Source: a virus (taxonomy: Duplodnaviria; Heunggongvirae; Uroviricota; Caudoviricetes). From it: a DNA stretch of 23,295 nucleotides. A program made the translations under genes and the position numbers. The stretch lies in the IMG/VR virus record IMGVR_UViG_2531839454_000013. One strand, written 5' to 3'. A model generated the notes under the pieces. It ran no database searches and was not told where the DNA came from. It saw nothing but the letters and a program-made list of their open reading frames with translations. Shown here piece after piece: positions 1,131 to 23,295 of this stretch. Every line of letters begins with the position of its first letter. Within the stretch, counting starts at the first letter, position 1.

Positions 1131-1207
1131 GGCCCTTTAGCTCAGTTGGTCAGAGCGAGCGACTCATAATCGCCAGGTCGCTGGTTCAAGTCCAGCAAGG
1201 GCCACCA
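1131..1207 (+). tRNA. tRNA with CAU anticodon, most similar to E. coli tRNA-Ile2 (lysidine-CAU, reads AUA); elongator Met not excluded
   Basis: Cloverleaf read by eye: acceptor GGCCCTT/AAGGGCC, D-arm GCTC...GAGC, anticodon loop CTCATAA, T-loop TTCAAGT, 3' ACCA. Closely resembles ileX from memory. One A:C mispair in the anticodon stem as I parsed it. Confidence 0.8.
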
Positions 1208-1208
1208 G

Positions 1209-1285
1209 CCGCCACTAGCTCATCCGGATAGAGCATCAACCTTCTAAGTTGATGGTGCGAGGTTCGAGTCCTCGGTGGCGGGCCA
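1209..1285 (+). tRNA. tRNA-Arg (anticodon UCU, reads AGA/AGG)
   Basis: Acceptor CCGCCAC/GTGGCGG (C1:G72), D-arm GCTC/GAGC, anticodon stem TCAAC/GTTGA with loop CTTCTAA, T-arm CGAGG-TTCGAGT-CCTCG, 3' GCCA. The 5' boundary could be 1208. Confidence 0.75.
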
Positions 1286-1287
1286 GT

Positions 1288-1363
<76 letters not shown>

Positions 1364-1366
1364 TAT

Positions 1367-1441
<75 letters not shown>

Positions 1442-12232: not shown

Positions 12233-12630
12233 ACCGACATACACAAATCCGCCAGGCCGTACTGGCACGCCTTCGGGAACAGTGTGGAGACAGCGCCACG
12301 TTTTTTGACGGGCTTCCGGCATTTATTGATGCGCAGGAACTGCCTGCCGTGGCGGTGTGGCTGAGTGATGCTCAGTACACCGGAAAAATGACGGATGAAG
12401 ATGACTGGCAGGCTGTTCTGCATATTGCCGTCTTCATCCGGGCACAGGCACCGGATTCAGAGCTGGATATGTGGATGGAGAGCACCATTTTCCCGGCCCT
12501 GAATGATATACCGGCACTTTCCGGACTCATCGACACCCTGATCCCTCTCGGTTTTAACTATCAACGTGATAATGAGATGGCCACCTGGGCGATGGCGGAA
12601 ATCACGTACCAGATCACGTACACGAATTAA
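12229..12630 (+). CDS. U: Tail terminator protein U
   Basis: ATG at 12229 overlaps the Z stop (ATGA); track alternative is 12217. Similar from memory to lambda gpU (ATFFDG, PAVAVWL, YTG, PDSELD.WMES, IPALS.LI). Confidence 0.75.
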   Translation: MNRHTQIRQAVLARLREQCGDSATFFDGLPAFIDAQELPAVAVWLSDAQYTGKMTDEDDWQAVLHIAVFIRAQAPDSELDMWMESTIFPALNDIPALSGLIDTLIPLGFNYQRDNEMATWAMAEITYQITYTN

Positions 12631-12639
12631 GGAGGTGGA

Positions 12640-13379
12640 ATGACCACACCAAATCCACTGGCAAAACGAAAGGTGCGGGACGACGTTCTGGATGTAACCG
12701 GCAAGGCGATGCGTTTGCGAACCCTTTATCGGACACTGACTGGCTGCGTCTTGCGATGGTGAAGGATCTGCAACCTGGCGAAATGACCGCTGATGCAGAA
12801 GATGACACTTATCTCGATGATGAAGATGCAGACTGGAAAACGACAACCCAGGGGCAGAAATCCGTTGGTGATACTTCGGCGACGCTGGCCTGGCGTCCGG
12901 GTGACAGCGGGCAGAAAAAACTGGTTCAGTTGTTCGACTCCGGTGAAGTCTGCGCGTTTCGTATCAAATATCCCAACGGCACTGTTGATGTTTTCCGTGG
13001 CTGGCTGAGCTCACTGGGTAAAACCATTGCCTCAAAAGACGTGATGACCCGCACAGTGAAAATCAGCGGTGTGGGGCGTCCGTATCTGGCAGAGGAAGGC
13101 ACTGAAACCGTGAGCGTTACCGGGCTGACAGTATCACCGGCGTCTGCCAGTGTAAAAGTGGGAGCAACCACCACGCTGACCTTTACAGTAAAACCTGACG
13201 GAGCCAGTGACAAAGCGATCAGTGTGCATTCGTCAGATCCACAGACTGCCACGGTTACCCTGAACGGACTTGTGGCCACGGTAAAAGGCGTGAAGCAGGG
13301 CAGTGTCAGCATTGTGGGCATGACCGCTGACGGGATTTTTGTGGCTGTGACTGCGGTGACTGTCAGCGCAGCAGGTTAA
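12640..13379 (+). pseudogene. V: Major tail protein V homologue with the 5' ~110 nt out of frame; intact ORF only from the internal ATG at 12756
   Basis: Strong RBS AAGGAGGTGG plus ATG at 12640 opens a frame (MTTPNPLAK...) that stops after about 40 codons. gpV-like blocks appear in three different frames (KGAG; TTFWM; GDAFANPLSD..) before the long ORF 12756..13379, which matches lambda gpV including the C-terminal Ig-like domain. Could be genuine disruption or local sequence error. Confidence 0.5.
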
Positions 13380-13826: not shown

Positions 13827-14164
13827 CGCGGGAAATGCAGTTTGTCATGCGGCTTGCCCGGGAGTTCCGGCGGGCAGACTGGCGGCGGATGCTGTCGGAA
13901 ATGTCGGCCACTGAGCTTGGGGAGTGGGGCGATTATTTCCGGATGCAGAGTTTCAGTGATGTGTGGATGGATGCGCAGTTTGCCTCGCTGAAGGCATTGA
14001 TCGTGAGAATGGTGTCCGGCAGCAGTGATGCTGCGGTAGCTGATTTCAGCCTTTTACCGGAAGAGAACGGGATACCGGAGCGAACGGACGAAGAACTGAT
14101 GCATCTTGGGGAAGGTATTTCCGGAGGTGTGCGTTATGGACCAGATAGCCAACCTGGTCATTGA
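13820..14164 (+). CDS. T: T portion of the G-T tail assembly chaperone, expected to be made by -1 programmed frameshift from G
   Basis: The -1 frame is open from the end of G to 14164 (track ORF 13835..14164). Candidate slippery heptamer GGAAAAG at 13814-13820, two codons before the G stop. G followed by overlapping T then tape measure is the conserved arrangement. Confidence 0.55.
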   Translation, partial: VLTREMQFVMRLAREFRRADWRRMLSEMSATELGEWGDYFRMQSFSDVWMDAQFASLKALIVRMVSGSSDAAVADFSLLPEENGIPERTDEELMHLGEGISGGVRYGPDSQPGH

Positions 14165-17100
14165 TTTGGGGATTGATGCGGCAGAGTTTAAAAATGAAAT
14201 TCCCCGTATCAAAAACCTTCTGAATGGTGCAGCCAGCGATGCAGAACGGTCTTCTGCCCGTATGCAGCGTTTTATGGAGCGTCAGACTCAGGCCGCCCGG
14301 CAGACAACGCAGGCAGCTTCTTCGGCTGCAACAGCCGCATCCGTCCATGCGCAGACGGTGGAGAAGAACGCACAGGCTCATGAACGCATGGCCCGCGAGG
14401 TGGAGAAAACCCGCCAGCGCATGGAGGCACTGAGCCAGAAAATGCGCGAGGAACAGGCGCAGGCCATGGCTCTGGCGGAGGCTCAGGATAAAGCGGCTGC
14501 TGCGTTTTATCGTCAGATTGACAGTGTGAAACAGGCCAGTGCGGGGCTGCAGGAATTACAGCGTATTCAGCAGCAGATCCGACAGGCCAGAAACAGTGGC
14601 GGGATTGGTCAGCAGGATTATCTGGCGCTGATTTCTGAGGTTACTGCGAAAACTCGTGTTCTTACACAGGCTGAGGAAGAGGCTACCCGACAGAAAGTGG
14701 CGTTTATCCGTCAGCTTAAAGAGCAGGCAACCCGCCAGAATCTTTCTTCTTCTGAGTTGCTTCGTGCTAAGGCTGCCCAGCTGGGGGTAAGCAGTGCTGC
14801 AGAAGTGTATATCCGCAAAATGGAGCAGGCAGGAAAAGCCACGCATTCGCTGGGTCTGAAAAGTGCAGCGGCCCGCCAGGAGATAGGCGTTCTGATAGGT
14901 GAACTGGCCCGCGGCAATTTAGGGGCGCTGAGGGGATCCGGGATAACGCTGGCTAACCGTGCCGGATGGATAGACACACTGATGTCACCGAAAGGCATGA
15001 TGCTTGGCGGGGTTATTGGCGGTATTGCCGCGGCCGTCTATGGTCTGGGTAAAGCCTGGTATGACGGTCAGAAGGAGGGGGAAGAATTTAACCGCCAGTT
15101 GTCGCTGACGGGGCATTATGCCGGAGTCACTGCCGGGCAGCTGTGGACGCTCAGTCGTGCTATTTCCGGGAATGGTATCACGCAACATGCTGCAGCCGGT
15201 GCGCTGGCTCAGGTGGTGGGGAGTGGTGCATTTCGTGGAAACGATATCGGTATGGTGGCGAGAGTTGCCGCACAGATGGAGCGATCGGTTGGCCAGTCGG
15301 TCAGCGATACCATAAATCAGTTTAAGCGGCTGAAGGATGATCCTGTAAATGCCGCGAAGGCTCTGGACAATGAGCTGCATTTTCTTACTGCCACTCAGCT
15401 TGAGCAGATACGCGTCCTTGGGGAGCAGGGGCGGTCCAGTGATGCTGCACGGATAGCCATGTCTGCACTGGCAGAGGAAACCGGTCGGCGTACTGCGGAT
15501 ATTGATAATAACCTCAATGCGCTTGGCAGTACGCTGAAGTATCTGTCTGATTTGTGGAGTCGTTTCTGGGATGCGGCCATGAATATTGGTCGTGAAGACT
15601 CGCTGGATGAACAGATTTCCGCTTTACAGGAGAAAGTGTCGCGGGCGAAAAGACTCCCCTGGACGGCATCATCTTCTCAGGTTGAGTACGATCAGCAGCG
15701 TCTTAACGAGCTTCAGAAGAAAAAACGCCAGAAGGATTTGCAGGATGCAAAAGAGCAGGCAGAGCAGAATTATCAGGAGCAACAGAAACGCCGTAATGCT
15801 GAAAATGCTGCACTGAACCGGATGAATGAAACGGAAGCAGCACGACATCAGCGTGAAATTGCGCGTATTAATGCCATGCAGTACGCCGATCAGGCTGTCA
15901 GGGATGCGGCGATACAACGTGAAAATGAACGTTACGAGAAAGCCCTGGCATCCGGTAAGAAAAAAACACGCGAAACCCGTAATGATGAGGCCACCCGGTT
16001 ATTGCTGCAGTACAGTCAGCAACAGGCACAGGTGGAAGGACAGATTGCTGCTGCCAGACAGTCAGCAGGCATTGCCACGGAAAGGATGACAGAAGCGCAT
16101 AAACAGCTTCTGGCTCTGCAGCAGCGCATCAGCGACCTGGACGGGAAAAAACTGACGGCAGATGAAAAGAGTGTGCTGGCCCGTAAAGATGAACTGATTC
16201 AGGCACTGACGCTGCTGGATGTAAAACAGCAGGAGCTTCAGAAACAGACGGCACTCAACGAGCTGAAGAAAAAAACAATTCAGCTGACCAGTCAACTGGC
16301 TGAAGAAGAGCGCGCTCAGCGTCAGCAACATGACCTGGATATCGCCACGGTGGGTATGGGTGATCAGCAGCGGCAGCGATATCAGGTACAACTGAGTCTT
16401 CGCCAGAAATACCAGCAACAGCTGGAGCAGTTGAGGCGGGATAGTGAGCAGAAAGGGACATATAACACGGATGACTACAGAAAGGCCGAGCAGGCGCTGA
16501 CGGAGAGCCTGAACCGACAACTGAATGAGAATCGCCGTTACTGGCAACAGCTTGAAGTTGTGCAGGGTAACTGGAAAAACGGAGTCCTGCGTGCATTTCA
16601 GAATTTTACCGTGGATGCAGATAATACGGCAGGAACAGCAGAACAGGTGTTCTCGTCAGCCTTCAGCAACATGGGAAATGGCCTGGCAACTTTTGTCACT
16701 ACCGGCAAACTCAATTTCAAATCCTTCACCTCTTCTGTGCTGTCAGATATGGCGAAAATCCTGGCGCAGGCAACCATGATGAAATCGATAAAAGGGATTG
16801 GCAGTGTACTGGGATTTGATCTCAGCAGCCTTTCCCTGAATGCCAATGGGGGGATTTATCAGTCTGCTGATTTGAGTCGTTACAGTGGCACGGTGGTTAA
16901 CCGTCCGACGTTTTTTGCTTTTGCAAAAGGCGCGGGTGTGATGGGGGAAGCGGGACCTGAAGCCATTCTGCCATTGCGTCGTGGTGCTGACGGTAAGCTG
17001 GGGGTTGTGGCGGATATTGGGGGGTCAGGTATGGCGATGTTTTCCCCGCAGTACAACATTGAGATCAATAACGATGGCACGAACGGGCAGATAGGTCCGG

Positions 17101-17201
17101 CTGCCCTGAAGGCGGTTTATGACCTCGGGAAAAAAGCGGCAGCGGACTTTATGCAACAGCAGGCCCGTGATGGTGGTCGGTTAAGTGGAGCATATCGGTA
17201 A
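14136..17201 (+). CDS. H: Tail tape measure protein (gpH-like)
   Basis: ATG at 14136 with RBS GGAGGTG (in-frame within track ORF 14106..17201); about 1020 aa, long Gln/Arg/Ala/Glu-rich helical centre, C-terminus INNDGTNGQIGPAALKAVYD matching lambda gpH. Confidence 0.85.
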   Translation: MDQIANLVIDLGIDAAEFKNEIPRIKNLLNGAASDAERSSARMQRFMERQTQAARQTTQAASSAATAASVHAQTVEKNAQAHERMAREVEKTRQRMEALSQKMREEQAQAMALAEAQDKAAAAFYRQIDSVKQASAGLQELQRIQQQIRQARNSGGIGQQDYLALISEVTAKTRVLTQAEEEATRQKVAFIRQLKEQATRQNLSSSELLRAKAAQLGVSSAAEVYIRKMEQAGKATHSLGLKSAAARQEIGVLIGELARGNLGALRGSGITLANRAGWIDTLMSPKGMMLGGVIGGIAAAVYGLGKAWYDGQKEGEEFNRQLSLTGHYAGVTAGQLWTLSRAISGNGITQHAAAGALAQVVGSGAFRGNDIGMVARVAAQMERSVGQSVSDTINQFKRLKDDPVNAAKALDNELHFLTATQLEQIRVLGEQGRSSDAARIAMSALAEETGRRTADIDNNLNALGSTLKYLSDLWSRFWDAAMNIGREDSLDEQISALQEKVSRAKRLPWTASSSQVEYDQQRLNELQKKKRQKDLQDAKEQAEQNYQEQQKRRNAENAALNRMNETEAARHQREIARINAMQYADQAVRDAAIQRENERYEKALASGKKKTRETRNDEATRLLLQYSQQQAQVEGQIAAARQSAGIATERMTEAHKQLLALQQRISDLDGKKLTADEKSVLARKDELIQALTLLDVKQQELQKQTALNELKKKTIQLTSQLAEEERAQRQQHDLDIATVGMGDQQRQRYQVQLSLRQKYQQQLEQLRRDSEQKGTYNTDDYRKAEQALTESLNRQLNENRRYWQQLEVVQGNWKNGVLRAFQNFTVDADNTAGTAEQVFSSAFSNMGNGLATFVTTGKLNFKSFTSSVLSDMAKILAQATMMKSIKGIGSVLGFDLSSLSLNANGGIYQSADLSRYSGTVVNRPTFFAFAKGAGVMGEAGPEAILPLRRGADGKLGVVADIGGSGMAMFSPQYNIEINNDGTNGQIGPAALKAVYDLGKKAAADFMQQQARDGGRLSGAYR

Positions 17202-17539: not shown

Positions 17540-18226
17540 ATGCAGGATATTTCACAGGAAACACATCATGAGACGACACGCCTCACTCAGTCAGCCCAGG
17601 TGGTGCTCTGGGAAATCGATCTGACAGTGGTCGGTGGTGAACGTTATTTTTTCTGTAATGAGCAGAACGATAAAGGTGAGCCGGTCACCTGGCAGGGGCG
17701 ACAGTATCAGGCGTATCCCATTCAGGGGACGGGATTTGAACTGAACGGCAAAGGCAGTGCTGCCCGTCCGACACTGACGGTTTCTAACCTGCACGGCATG
17801 GTCACCGGGATGGCGGAAGACCTGCAGAGTCTGGTCGGAGGAACGGTGGTCCGGCGTAAGGTTTACGCCCGTTTTCTGGATGCGGTGAACTTCGTCAACG
17901 GAAACAGGACGCCGATCCGGAGCAGGAGGTGATCAGCCGCTGGCGCATGAGCAGTGCAGGAACTGAGCGCGGTAGTGCCTCTTTTGTACTGTCCACGCCG
18001 ACGAAACGGAGGGCGTTTTTCCGGGACGTATCATGCTGGCCAACACCTGCACCTGGACCTATCGCGGTGAGAGTGCGGTTATAGCGGTCCGGCGTCGCGG
18101 ATGAATATGACCAGCCGACGTCCGATATCACGAAGGATAAATGCAGCAAATGCCTGAGGGCTGTAAGTTTCGCAATAACGTCGGCAACTTTGGCGGCTTC
18201 CTTTCCATTAACAAACTTTCGCAGTA
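17540..18226 (+). pseudogene. L: Minor tail protein L homologue, frame-disrupted after about codon 130
   Basis: First 130 codons are near-identical to lambda gpL, then the frame ends early (NGNRTPIRSRR*). Remaining gpL-like peptides are present but in shifted frames (DPEQEVISRWR; SASFVLSTPT; GRIMLANTCTWTYRG; VADEYDQPTSDITKDKCSKCL), needing at least 4 frame changes to reach the native stop at 18224-18226. Confidence 0.6.
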
Positions 18227-18231
18227 ATCCC

Positions 18232-18969
18232 ATGACAGAGACAGAATCAGCGATTCTGGCGCACGCCCGGCGATGTGCGCCAGCGGAGTCGTGCGGCTTC
18301 GTGGTGAGAACGCCGGAGGGGGAAAGATATTTTCCCTGCGTGAATATCTCCGGTGAGCCGGAGGCGTATTTCCGGATGTCGCCGGAGGACTGGCTGCAGG
18401 CAGAAATGCAGGGTGAGATTGTGGCGCTGGTCCACAGCCACCCCGGTGGTCTGCCCTGGCTGAGTGAGGCCGACCGGCGGCTGCAGGTGCAGAGTGATTT
18501 GCCGTGGTGGCTGGTCTGCCGGGGGGCGATTCATAAATTCCGCTGTGTGCCGCATCTCACCGGGCGGCGCTTTGAGCACGGGGTGACGGACTGTTACACG
18601 CTGTTCCGGGAGCTTACCATCTGGCGGGGATTGAGATGCCGGATTTTCATCGCGGGGATGACTGGTGGCGTAACGGTCAGAATCTCTATCTGGATAATCT
18701 GGAGGCCACAGGGCTGTATCAGGTGCCGTTGTCATCAGCACAACCGGGCGATGTGCTGCTGTGCTGTTTTGGTTCATCGGTGCCGAATCATGCCGCCATT
18801 TACTGGGGACGGCGAGCTGCTGCACCATATTCCTGAACAACTGAGCAAACGAGAGAGGTATACCGACAAATGGCAGCGACGCACACACTCCCTCTGGCGT
18901 CACCGGGCATGGCCGCATCTGCCTTTACGGGGATTTACAACGATTTGGCCGCCGCATCGACTCGTGTGA
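18232..18969 (+). pseudogene. K: Tail assembly protein K homologue (JAB/MPN HSHPGG motif plus NlpC/P60-like region), frame-disrupted
   Basis: N-terminal ~130 codons intact and lambda-like, then the frame shifts near 18610-18640. The next conserved block (MPDFHRGDDWWRNGQNLYLDNLEATGLYQVPLS..QPGDVLLCCFGSSVPNHAAIY) is in another frame (track ORF 18636..18836), and the C-terminal block (GDGELLHHIPEQLSKRERYTDKWQRRTHSLWRHRAW) is back in the first frame. Confidence 0.6.
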
Positions 18970-19478
18970 AAACGGGGGCGAAGCCATCCGGGCGCTGGCC
19001 ACAGTCCCGGCGTTTCGTCAGAACTGAGCGACGGCTGGTATCAGGTACGCATTGCCGGGCGTGATCAGAACGGATTTCGCCCGTCTTAATGACCGCTGGC
19101 AAATGGTGCTGTGATCATATGTCCGGTCGCGGGGCCAAGTGGGGGTTTCAGTTGTGCTGGGGGCGGCCGCTATTGCGGTTCTTAGGGAGACCCTTGCGCT
19201 GGGGGGAGCCATTGGCGTGTATACGGCATCTGTTTTCTCTCGGTGCCAGTATGTGCTGGGGTGTGGCCAGATGCTGGCACCGAAAGCCAGAACCCCCGAC
19301 ACAGACAACGGATAACGGCAAACAGAACACCTATTTCTCCTCACTGGATAACATGGTTGCCCAGGGCAATGTTCTGCCGTTCTGTACGGTGAAATGCGCG
19401 TGGGGTCCGGTGGTTTCTCAGGAGATCAGCACGGCAGACGAAGGGGATGGTGGTCAGGTTGTGGTGATTGGTCGCTGA
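18870..19478 (+). pseudogene. I: Tail assembly protein I homologue, frame-disrupted
   Basis: Starts MAATHTLPLASPGMA as in lambda gpI, then leaves the frame within a few codons. The conserved C-terminal half (TTDNGKQNTYFSSLDNMVAQGNVLP ... VVSQEISTADEGDGGQVVVIGR) is in track ORF 19089..19478; intervening gpI-like peptides are scattered across frames. Confidence 0.6.
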
Positions 19479-19497
19479 TGAAAATGTTTTATGTGAA

Positions 19498-19516
19498 ACC
19501 GCCTGCGGGCGGTTTT
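19498..19516 (+). terminator. Hairpin with short T-run between I and J (weak terminator or attenuator)
   Basis: ACCGCC-TGCG-GGCGGT followed by TTTT. Confidence 0.35.
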
Positions 19517-19537
19517 GTCGTTTATGGAGCGTGAGGA

Positions 19538-22500
19538 ATGGGTAAAGGAGCAGTAAGGGGCATACCCCGCGCGAAGCGAAGGACAACCTGAAGTCCACGC
19601 AGTGCTGAGTGTGATCGATGCCATCAGCGAAGGGCCGTTGAAGGTCCGGTGGATGGATTAAAAAGCGTGCTGCTGAACAGTACGCCGGTGCTGGACATGA
19701 GGGGAATACCAACATCTCCGGGTCACGGTGGTGTTCCGGGCGGTGAGCAGGAGCAGACCCGCCGGAGGGATTTGAATCCTCCGGCTCCGAGACGGTGTGG
19801 GTACGGAAGTGAAATAGACACGCCGATCACCCGCCCATCACGTCGGCAAACATCGACCGCTGCGCTTTACCTTCGGGTGCAGGCACTGGTGGAAACCACC
19901 TCAAAGGGGGACGGAATCCGTCGGAAGTCGCCTGCTGGTTCAGATCAGCGTAAGGTGGCTGGGTGACGGAAAAAGACATCACCATTAAGGGCAAAACCAC
20001 CTCGCAGTATCTGGCCTCGGTGGTGGTGGATAACCTGCCGCCGCGCCCGTTAATATCCGGATGCGCAGATGACGCCGGACAGCACCACAGACCAGCTGCA
20101 GAACAAAACGCTCTGGTCGTCATACACCGAAATCATCGATGTGAAACAGTGCTACCCGAACACGGCACTGGTCGGCGTGCAGGTGGACTCGGACAGTTCG
20201 GCAGCCAGCAGGTGAGCCGTAATTATCATCTCGCGGGCGATTCTGCAGGTGCCGTCGAACTATAACCCGCAGACGCGGCAATACAGCGGTATCTGGGACG
20301 GAACGTTTAACCGCATACAGCAACAACATGGCCTGGTGTCTGTGGGATATGCTGACCCATCCGCGCTACGGCATGGGGAAACGTCTTGGTGCGGCGATGT
20401 GGAAAATGGGCGCTGTATGTCATCGGCCAGATGCGACCAGTCGGTGCCGGACGGCTTTGGCGGCACGGAGCCCGCATCACCTGTAATGCGTACCTGACCA
20501 CACAGCGCAAGGCGTGGGATGTGCTCAGTGATTTCTGCTCGGCGATGCGCTGTATGCCGGTATGGAACGGGCAGACGCTGACGTTCGTGCAGGACCGACC
20601 TCGATAAGGTGTGGACCTATAACCGCAGTAATGTGGTGATGCCGGATGATGGCGCGCCGTTCCGCTACAGCTTCAGCGCCCTGAAGGACCGCCATAATGC
20701 CGTTGAGGTGAACTGGATTGACCCGAATAACGGCTGGGAGACGGCGACAGAGCTTGTGGAGGACACGCAGGCCATTGCCCGTTACGGTCGTAACGTCACG
20801 AAGATGGATGCTTTTGGCTGTACCAGCCGGGGGCAGGCACACCGAGCCGGGCTGTGGCTGATTAAAACGGAACTGCTGGAAACGCAGACCGTGGACTTCA
20901 GCGTGGGTGCGGAAGGGCTTCGCCATGTACCGGGCGATGTCATTGAAATCTGCGATGATGACTATGCGGGTATCAGCACCGGTGGTCGCGTGCTGGCGGT
21001 GAACAGCCAGACCCGGACGCTGACGCTCGACCGTGAAATCACGCTGCCATCCTCCGGCACCACGCTGATAAGCCTGGTTGACGGTGAGGGTAATCCGGTC
21101 AGCGTGGAGGTCCAGTCCGTCACCGACGGCGTGAAGGTGAAAGTGAGCCGTGTTCCTGACGGCGTTGCTGAATACAGCGTTGGGGGCTGAAGTGCCGACG
21201 TTGCGCCAGCGCCTGTTCCGCTGCGTGAGTATCCGTGAGAACGACGACGGCACGTATGCCATCACGCCGTGCAGCATGTACCGGAAAAGAGGCCATCGTG
21301 GATAACGGGGCGCACTTTGACGGCGACCAGAGCGGCACGGTAATGGTGTCACGCCGCCAGCGTGCAGCACCTGACGCGAAGTCACCGCAGACAGCGGGGA
21401 ATACAGGTGCTGGCCGCTGGGACACGCCGAAGGTGGTGAAGGGGTGAGCTTTGCTTCGCCTGACCGTCAGCGGAGACGGCAGTGAGCGGCTGGTCAGCAC
21501 GGCCCGGACGACGAAACCACATACCGCTTCAGCACTGGCGCTGGGGCGTTACAGCTGACGGTCCGGGCGGTAAATGCGTGGGGCAGCAGGGCGATCCGGC
21601 ATCGGTATCGTTCCGGATTGCCGCACCGGCAGCGCCGTCGCAGATTGAGCTGACACCCGGGTATTTTCAGATAACCGCCACGCCGCATCTTGCGGTTTAT
21701 GATCCGACGGTACAGTTTGAGTTCTGGTTCTCGGAAAAGCGGATTGCGGATATCAGGCAGGTTGAAACCAGCGCGCGTTATCTTGGTACGGCGCTGTACT
21801 GGATAGCCGCCAGTATCAATATCAGGCCGGGCCATGATTATTATTTTTACGTTCGCAGTGTGAATACCGTTGGCAAATCGGCATTCGTGGAGGCTGTTGG
21901 TCGGCCGAGTGATGATGCTTCCGGCTATCTGGATTTTTTCAAAGGCGAGATAGGGAAAAGCCATCTGGCTCAGGAGTTGTGGACGCAGATTGATAACGGT
22001 CAGCTTGCGCCTGACCTGGCTGAAATCAGGACGTCCATTACGGATGTCAGCAATGAAATCACACAGACCGTCAATAAGAAACTGGAAGATCAGAGTGCAG
22101 CGATCCAGCAGATACAGAAGGTTCAGGTTGATACAAATAATAACCTGAACAGCATGTGGGCTGTGAAGCTGCAGCAGATGCAGGACGGACGCCTTTATAT
22201 CGCGGGTATCGGTGCCGGTATTGAGAATACGCCTGCAGGAATGCAGAGTCAGGTGCTGCTGGCGGCAGACAGGATTGCGATGATTAATCCTGCAAATGGC
22301 AACACAAAACCGATGTTTGTTGGTCAGGGTGATCAGATATTCATGAATGAAGTGTTCCTGAAATATCTGACGGCTCCCACCATTACCAGCGGCGGTAATC
22401 CTCCTGCATTTTCCCTGACACCGGACGGAAAGCTGACCGCTAAAAATGCAGATATCAGTGGCAGTGTGAATGCGAACTCCGGGACGCTCAACAACGTTAC

Positions 22501-22966
22501 GATAAATGAGAACTGTCAGATTAAAGGGAAACTGTCAGCCAACCAGATTGAAGGCGATATTGTCAAAACAGTGGGTAAGGCTTTCCCGCGGGACTCCCGG
22601 GCACCGGAGCGGTGGCCATCAGGGACCATTACCGTCAGGATTTATGACGATCAGCCGTTTGACCGGCAGATTGTTATTCCGGCGGTGGCATTCAGCGGTG
22701 CTAAACATGAGAGAGAGCATACTGATATTTACTCCTCATGCCGCCTGATAGTGAAGAAAAATGGTGCTGAAATTTATAACCGTACCGCGCTGGATAATAC
22801 GCTGATTTACAGTGGTGTTATTGATATGCCAGCTGGTCACGGCCACATGACGCTGGAGTTTTCGGTGTCAGCATGGCTGGTAAATGACTGGTATCCCACA
22901 GCAAGTATCAGCGATTTGCTGGTTGTGGTGATGAAGAAAGCCACCGCAGGCATCAGTATCAGCTGA
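19538..22966 (+). pseudogene. J: Tail tip / host specificity protein J homologue; N-terminal ~2 kb fragmented by frame disruptions, C-terminal 494 codons (21482..22966) intact
   Basis: ATG at 19538 with RBS GAGGA begins MGKG... but stops after 17 codons. J-like peptides then appear across all three frames (track ORFs 19649..19966, 19963..20265, 20249..20497, 20386..20607, 20609..21190, 21235..21447). From 21482 to 22966 a single frame is intact and J-like, with a divergent last ~150 residues. Confidence 0.6.
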
Positions 22967-22985
22967 ATTTTATAACCCATATACG

Positions 22986-23009
22986 GGCGCCAGAAATGGC
23001 GCCTTTTTT
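22986..23009 (+). terminator. Rho-independent terminator after J
   Basis: GGCGCC-AGAAAT-GGCGCC perfect hairpin followed by T6. Confidence 0.65.
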
Positions 23010-23112
23010 ATTGCAGAAAAGCGAGAGGTGTAACCGGCTCATTTAAACCGTCTGGTCTGTTTCCTCCGGCTCTACAAAAATAATGTCCATCATTTTTAAT
23101 GGACACTATCGT

Positions 23113-23295
23113 ATGAAACACCGGACCTGGATCACTGAAGCTTTACGTCTTCACTTTGAAGAACATTTACCCCGGGTTGTGGCCGGGCGTCGCCTGGGTG
23201 TACCAAAATCAACAGTTTGTAGTATGTTCGTGCGCTTTCGGAGAGCTGGCCTTTCGTGGCCTTTGCCCGCAGGCATGTCGGAGCAGGAACTTGAT
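23113..23295 (+). CDS. N-terminal part of an HTH protein, probably an insertion-sequence transposase; 3' end beyond the window
   Basis: ATG at 23113, frame open to the window end. MKHRTWITEALRLHFEEHLPRVVAGRRLGVPKSTVCSMFVRFRRAGLSWPLPAGMSEQELD shows a helix-turn-helix followed by a GLxxPLP segment typical of IS transposase N-termini. Preceded by an inverted repeat ATGTCCAT-N8-ATGGACA (23083-23105). IS family not assigned. Confidence 0.4.
   Translation, partial: MKHRTWITEALRLHFEEHLPRVVAGRRLGVPKSTVCSMFVRFRRAGLSWPLPAGMSEQELD

Follow-up and report, generated by a model that had tools for sequence, protein, structure and literature searches.

Why should the gene for a major tail tube protein open with a ribosome binding site (RBS) and a start codon and then lose its reading frame within a few dozen codons? 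The question is raised by gene V in a prophage-derived contig of Escherichia coli, where an earlier note, made from the letters alone, had recognised a scrambled 5' end and had suggested that it arose by the same process as a similarly disrupted stretch spanning genes L to J, this process being either decay or local sequence error. Here we compare the deposited sequence with intact relatives, and weigh the explanations that might account for the pattern of missing bases.

The sequence analysed (the window) is the entire 23,295-bp draft WGS contig AQCY01000085.1 of assembly GCA_000354335.2. It represents the late region of an mEp460/lambda-like E. coli prophage, in which a methyltransferase gene is followed by four tRNAs, lysis genes and genes for terminase, portal, protease/capsid, Z, U, V, G/T, H, M, L, K, I and J. 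The four-tRNA cluster (window 1131-1441), placed between the methyltransferase and lysis genes, is kept in the closest ETEC prophages and comprises a tRNA with a CAT anticodon, Arg-TCT, Thr-TGT and Gly-TCC; the first of these is assigned to Met by ARAGORN and to Ile in the RefSeq annotation of relatives. A search of the literature by accession numbers found no paper on the contig or the assembly.

Tail gene V as deposited

The start of V and the gene itself occupy the following positions in the window, alleles A and B being defined below.

12629-12639, + strand: RBS AAGGAGG and spacer to the V start; one base (T in allele A, C in allele B) absent between 12638 and 12639
12640-13379, + strand: major tail tube gene V (lambda gpV type); 740 nt, versus 744 nt in intact relatives

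Direct reading of the sequence upholds the earlier description of this start. The RBS AAGGAGG (12629-12635) is followed by an ATG at 12640, from which a frame of 40 codons runs to a TGA at 12760-12762, and the long ORF reported beyond it is present at 12756-13379 and encodes 207 aa. Also as described, gpV-like peptide blocks ahead of the long ORF are spread over all three frames, frame 1 holding MTTPNPLAK, frame 2 GTTFWM, and frame 3 both KTKGAG and GDAFANPLSDTDWLRLAMVKDLQ. The broken start of V is real in the deposited sequence: the gene is present as two pieces, the 40-codon ORF (12640-12762) and the 207-aa ORF (12756-13379), and a single ORF retains V residues 41-247 only. The longer piece matches the Pfam model Phage_TTP_12 over model positions 25-135 only, the N-terminal domain not being complete in one frame, and matches Big_2 at E = 4e-12; the 40-aa ORF gave no Pfam match.

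Missing bases and the restored gene

Alignment of V with the intact genes of E. coli 025542-1 (L001) and phage mEp460_ev081 (L002) revealed five single bases absent within 67 nt, after positions 12638, 12665, 12679, 12696 and 12704. The first lies in the spacer between RBS and ATG, and the remaining four, all at third codon positions, lie inside codons 9-23 of V.

12665-12705, + strand: four in-gene gaps in V, after 12665 (G/A), 12679 (G/A), 12696 (T/C) and 12704 (C/G)

The gap after 12679 falls in a GGG run (12677-12679). Apart from the five gaps the V stretch (201 nt) is identical to relatives, and when the four in-gene bases are restored a 744-nt gene results; its 247 aa match the intact V of E. 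coli 025542-1 with 100% identity, no amino-acid change accompanying the gaps. The clustering of these lesions is not a matter of chance, since five of the six deletions in the first 17.9 kb of the window lie inside the 67 nt, an arrangement reproduced by none of 200,000 uniform simulations.

The restored product contains a complete Phage_TTP_12 domain (positions 1-135, E = 5e-67) together with Big_2; it can be aligned over its full length, residue 1 included, with the lambda gpV structures 9mfe and 6p3e, and in its C-terminal region also with 2l04, the C-terminal domain of lambda gpV. In relatives V is annotated as a 744-nt gene that starts at the ATG equivalent to 12640. Homologues that naturally begin at the position of 12756, which the earlier note had named as evidence that would speak against its reading, were not encountered; because the restored V aligns with lambda gpV from residue 1, the homologous start is that at 12640 and not 12756. 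Situated between U and G/T-H in the order Z-U-V-G/T-H, the restored gene shares its domains, its gene order and a full-length alignment with the lambda gpV-type tail tube protein of mEp460-like phages, whereas the deposited gene departs from that type by its four frame-breaking gaps.

One further irregularity was seen downstream in V. At window 13333-13336 an apparent deletion and insertion, seen when the closest complete relative (L003) is the reference, turns GDF into GIF within Big_2; the same pair is found in E. coli 025542-1, and is a natural variant rather than an error.

Gaps elsewhere in the contig

Compared over its length with L003, the window lacks 119 bases, almost all of them isolated singles, and carries 138 substitutions and 14 apparent insertions, the last mostly alignment noise within the worst patch. 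Two or three adjacent bases are missing at seven spots, and the other gaps measure 1 nt. Besides the natural pair at 13333/13336, gaps are limited to 12638-12704 (five) and to a second region downstream (about 110); terminase through M, other than V, and the C-terminal part of J are gap-free.

17907-21583, + strand: L-K-I-J region; about 110 single-base gaps of the kind seen in the V patch, densest at 18990-19300

Within 500 nt, the worst patch (18990-19300) accumulates 41 gaps, 20 substitutions and 11 apparent insertions. Over its C-terminal part (window 21952-23295), J shows only 92-94% identity to its closest relatives, in a gap-free alignment; the closest complete genomes gave no alignment for 21952-22274 or for the last 266 nt, and the contig stops shortly after J, as expected at a repeat boundary. 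In the equivalent prophage of E. coli L3_E36_ETEC (L004), L is split by a 5.3-kb insertion (L004 19090-24398) bearing Mor-family and HicB genes and a transposase fragment.

Placement of the gaps

Throughout the contig the missing bases show a marked preference for third codon positions, which account for 58 of 77 unambiguous gaps (75%; p = 8.5e-14). A homopolymer or slippage signature was sought among the gaps and none was found, 69% of them lying at run length 1 versus 57% expected, and the deleted bases are evenly split among A, C, G and T.

Polymorphism at each site was scored in 150 relatives, comprising 80 fetched IMG/VR loci and other related loci. All five gaps of the V patch lie on natural SNP sites, that in the spacer near 12638 being polymorphic (T/C) in 34 of the 150. 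Two natural haplotypes are represented at these sites, A (T,G,G,T,C), carried for instance by L001 and L003, and B (C,A,A,C,G), carried for instance by L128, and a three-way alignment of the window with L001 and L128 established that the window is without a base at those five A/B-discordant columns. A sixth such column retains its base, and at the remaining columns the window agrees with both alleles.

12728, + strand: sixth A/B-discordant column; base kept, an A, the allele-B state

The association extends to the second region. Within L-J, 71 of 77 unambiguous gaps (92%) occupy sites that are polymorphic among relatives, versus 873 of 3,740 other sites (23%; Fisher p = 5e-37), and with third positions considered alone the proportions are 56 of 57 gaps versus 558 of 1,210 other sites (p = 3e-17). 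Overall, 106 of the 119 gaps are at a polymorphic site or in a run containing one. L, K, I and, over its N-terminal two-thirds, J are falsely fragmented, and carry the same third-position and SNP-site signature as V. This common signature substantiates the earlier proposal that a single process affected both the V patch and L-J. The V segment is itself repeated, occurring at up to six places per related E. coli genome and at three in the closest strain.

Distribution of the gapped sequence

Among 1,834 E. coli records containing the V segment, the best full-length matches were 201/206, all five gaps being absent from them. For a 66-nt query within the gap patch the best match was 66/69, which means that the gaps recur in none of the complete E. 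coli genomes. Exact patterns spanning the gaps were found in none of the GTDB representative genomes, IMG/VR or the JGI metagenomes, while an intact 35-mer, used as a positive control, was present in 71 IMG/VR loci; nor was the gapped sequence found among the phages or complete E. coli genomes searched. In an exact-protein search for an independent assembly, the 207-aa V fragment occurred on no other contig, and the exact 1021-aa tape-measure protein H (14136-17201) likewise occurred on no other contig in an index of 153 billion genes.

Origin of the gaps

We hold with considerable confidence that the disruption at the 5' end of V arose in building the consensus of the draft WGS contig, as an artefact of assembly, and is not a property of the organism's DNA. 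In the mechanism that we favour, reads from two very similar templates would have been collapsed into one contig, the templates being two mEp460/lambda-like prophage copies residing in the same genome, or else two alleles from a mixed culture, so that the second may have been a paralogous prophage or a contaminant. Many columns at which the templates disagreed would then have received no consensus base, each SNP becoming a one-base gap, presumably in a software step that resolved ties as gaps or stripped ambiguity codes afterwards. The contig contains no IUPAC or N letters, a finding compatible with the stripping of codes that does not prove it.

As observed directly, the gaps are of single bases, are unique to this contig and, in V, are placed exactly at natural allelic differences; the contig is, moreover, part of a draft assembly, and its V segment is one that related genomes carry in several copies. 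Collapse of two templates is preferred because the differences between templates fall at precisely the wobble and population-variable sites, whereas deletions produced by decay or by random read error gain nothing at such sites and leave the pattern unexplained. Collapsed repeats, and false frameshifts through nucleotide-level errors, are recognised problems of assembly (PMC13577107). The present contig resembles collapsed-repeat or mixed-allele consensus errors of the class treated there, being a multicopy prophage sequence with false frameshifts in patches where copies differ; unlike the usual errors of this class, it has an unusually clean signature, in which discordant columns were dropped outright and given neither one of the alleles nor an ambiguity code.

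The templates of the L-J blocks were sought among the 150 related loci, where the best pairs of natural sequences explained 5-12 of the 6-15 gaps per block; the exact template pair is absent from this 150-locus sample, and the best pairs differ at other sites too. With natural sequences as templates, only about half of the discordant columns in L-J blocks are gaps, the rest being resolved to one allele. Natural pairs explain the worst patch least (11 of 26 gaps), and for this reason the templates at 18990-19300 may differ by indels or may be more diverged.

We also considered a second copy that could not be aligned outside the two patches; this was not confirmed, since the available B-like phages are 98-99% similar to the window throughout. 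Because B-like relatives differ from it by 1-2% everywhere, the true second template would have to equal the first outside the patches, as may plausibly be the case where the two prophages of a pair are mosaic or gene-converted.

Random sequencing or read-quality error arising with no second template, for instance in an unpolished long-read or low-coverage patch, is in our judgement an unlikely source of the gaps. Clustered, deletion-biased single-base errors in a draft contig are in keeping with such an origin, and errors of this kind are known to produce false frameshifts (PMC13577107). They would, however, ignore codon position and SNP sites, in conflict with the proportions of 75% and 92% recorded here, and the five V gaps correspond exactly to one natural haplotype difference.

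Genuine pseudogenisation, with frameshifts accumulating in V and L-J of a decaying prophage, appears very improbable. It would accord with the frames being truly broken in the deposited sequence, with the decay of cryptic prophages and with the deletion bias of bacterial mutation, and the broken tail-gene frames in an integrated lambdoid prophage are a feature that the contig shares with prophage pseudogenes formed by mutational decay. Unlike those, the V and L-J gaps are almost all 1 nt long, favour third positions and SNP sites and are known from one assembly only, and in the V patch they come with no substitutions. We found neither the indels expected of decay, which are blind to codon and SNP site, rich in homopolymers and varied in size, nor lesions that were shared or accompanied by substitutions. 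The 119 deleted bases, almost all single, include no deletion larger than 2-3 adjacent bases and show no homopolymer bias, and mutation has no reason to favour third positions or known SNP sites; the restored V patch is free of amino-acid change, among over 1,800 E. coli genomes with the V segment not one has the gaps, and the other genes from terminase to M are intact. Of the two possibilities in the earlier note, local sequence error is thus sustained by the siting of the gaps at SNP sites and third positions, their restriction to one contig and the 100% identity of the restored V, and decay is not. The process shared by V and L-J was almost certainly assembly error, involving neither gene decay nor new biology.

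Biological deletion of single bases at heteroduplex mismatches between two diverged prophage copies is the sole reading other than an artefact that would explain why gaps coincide with allelic differences, and if true it would amount to a targeted inactivation of tail genes. We regard it as extremely improbable: the pattern was present in a single draft contig and nowhere else among the sequences searched, we know of no mechanism for single-base deletion at such mismatches, and mismatch repair restores one allele or the other. Expression of V by programmed recoding through several ribosomal frameshifts is scarcely credible, for although a single programmed -1 frameshift is a feature of lambda-like tail operons, it lies in G/GT rather than V, four shifts would be required here in about 15 codons, direct reading shows that GTAACC and CAAGGC are not slippery heptamers and that there is none at 12696 or 12704, and V is a single open frame in all relatives.

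Implications

The scrambled start of V is thus no real feature of the biology. The ability of a truncated V to form a tail tube, which the earlier note had doubted, becomes a moot point, because the gaps are almost certainly assembly errors and the restored V is identical to an intact V. To judge from relatives, which carry each of the two underlying V alleles as an intact gene, a normal V is most likely encoded by the strain.

The practical use of the result lies in quality control. Frameshift or pseudogene calls derived from contig AQCY01000085.1 should not be counted as prophage decay, and the same caution probably applies to other repeat-derived contigs of GCA_000354335.2. An artefact of this type can be recognised quickly, and with no recourse to reads, by the enrichment of one-base gaps in third codon positions and in SNP sites already known. 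For the organism the consequence is small: the genes V, L, K, I and J of the strain are most likely normal, and it perhaps harbours two prophages related to each other.
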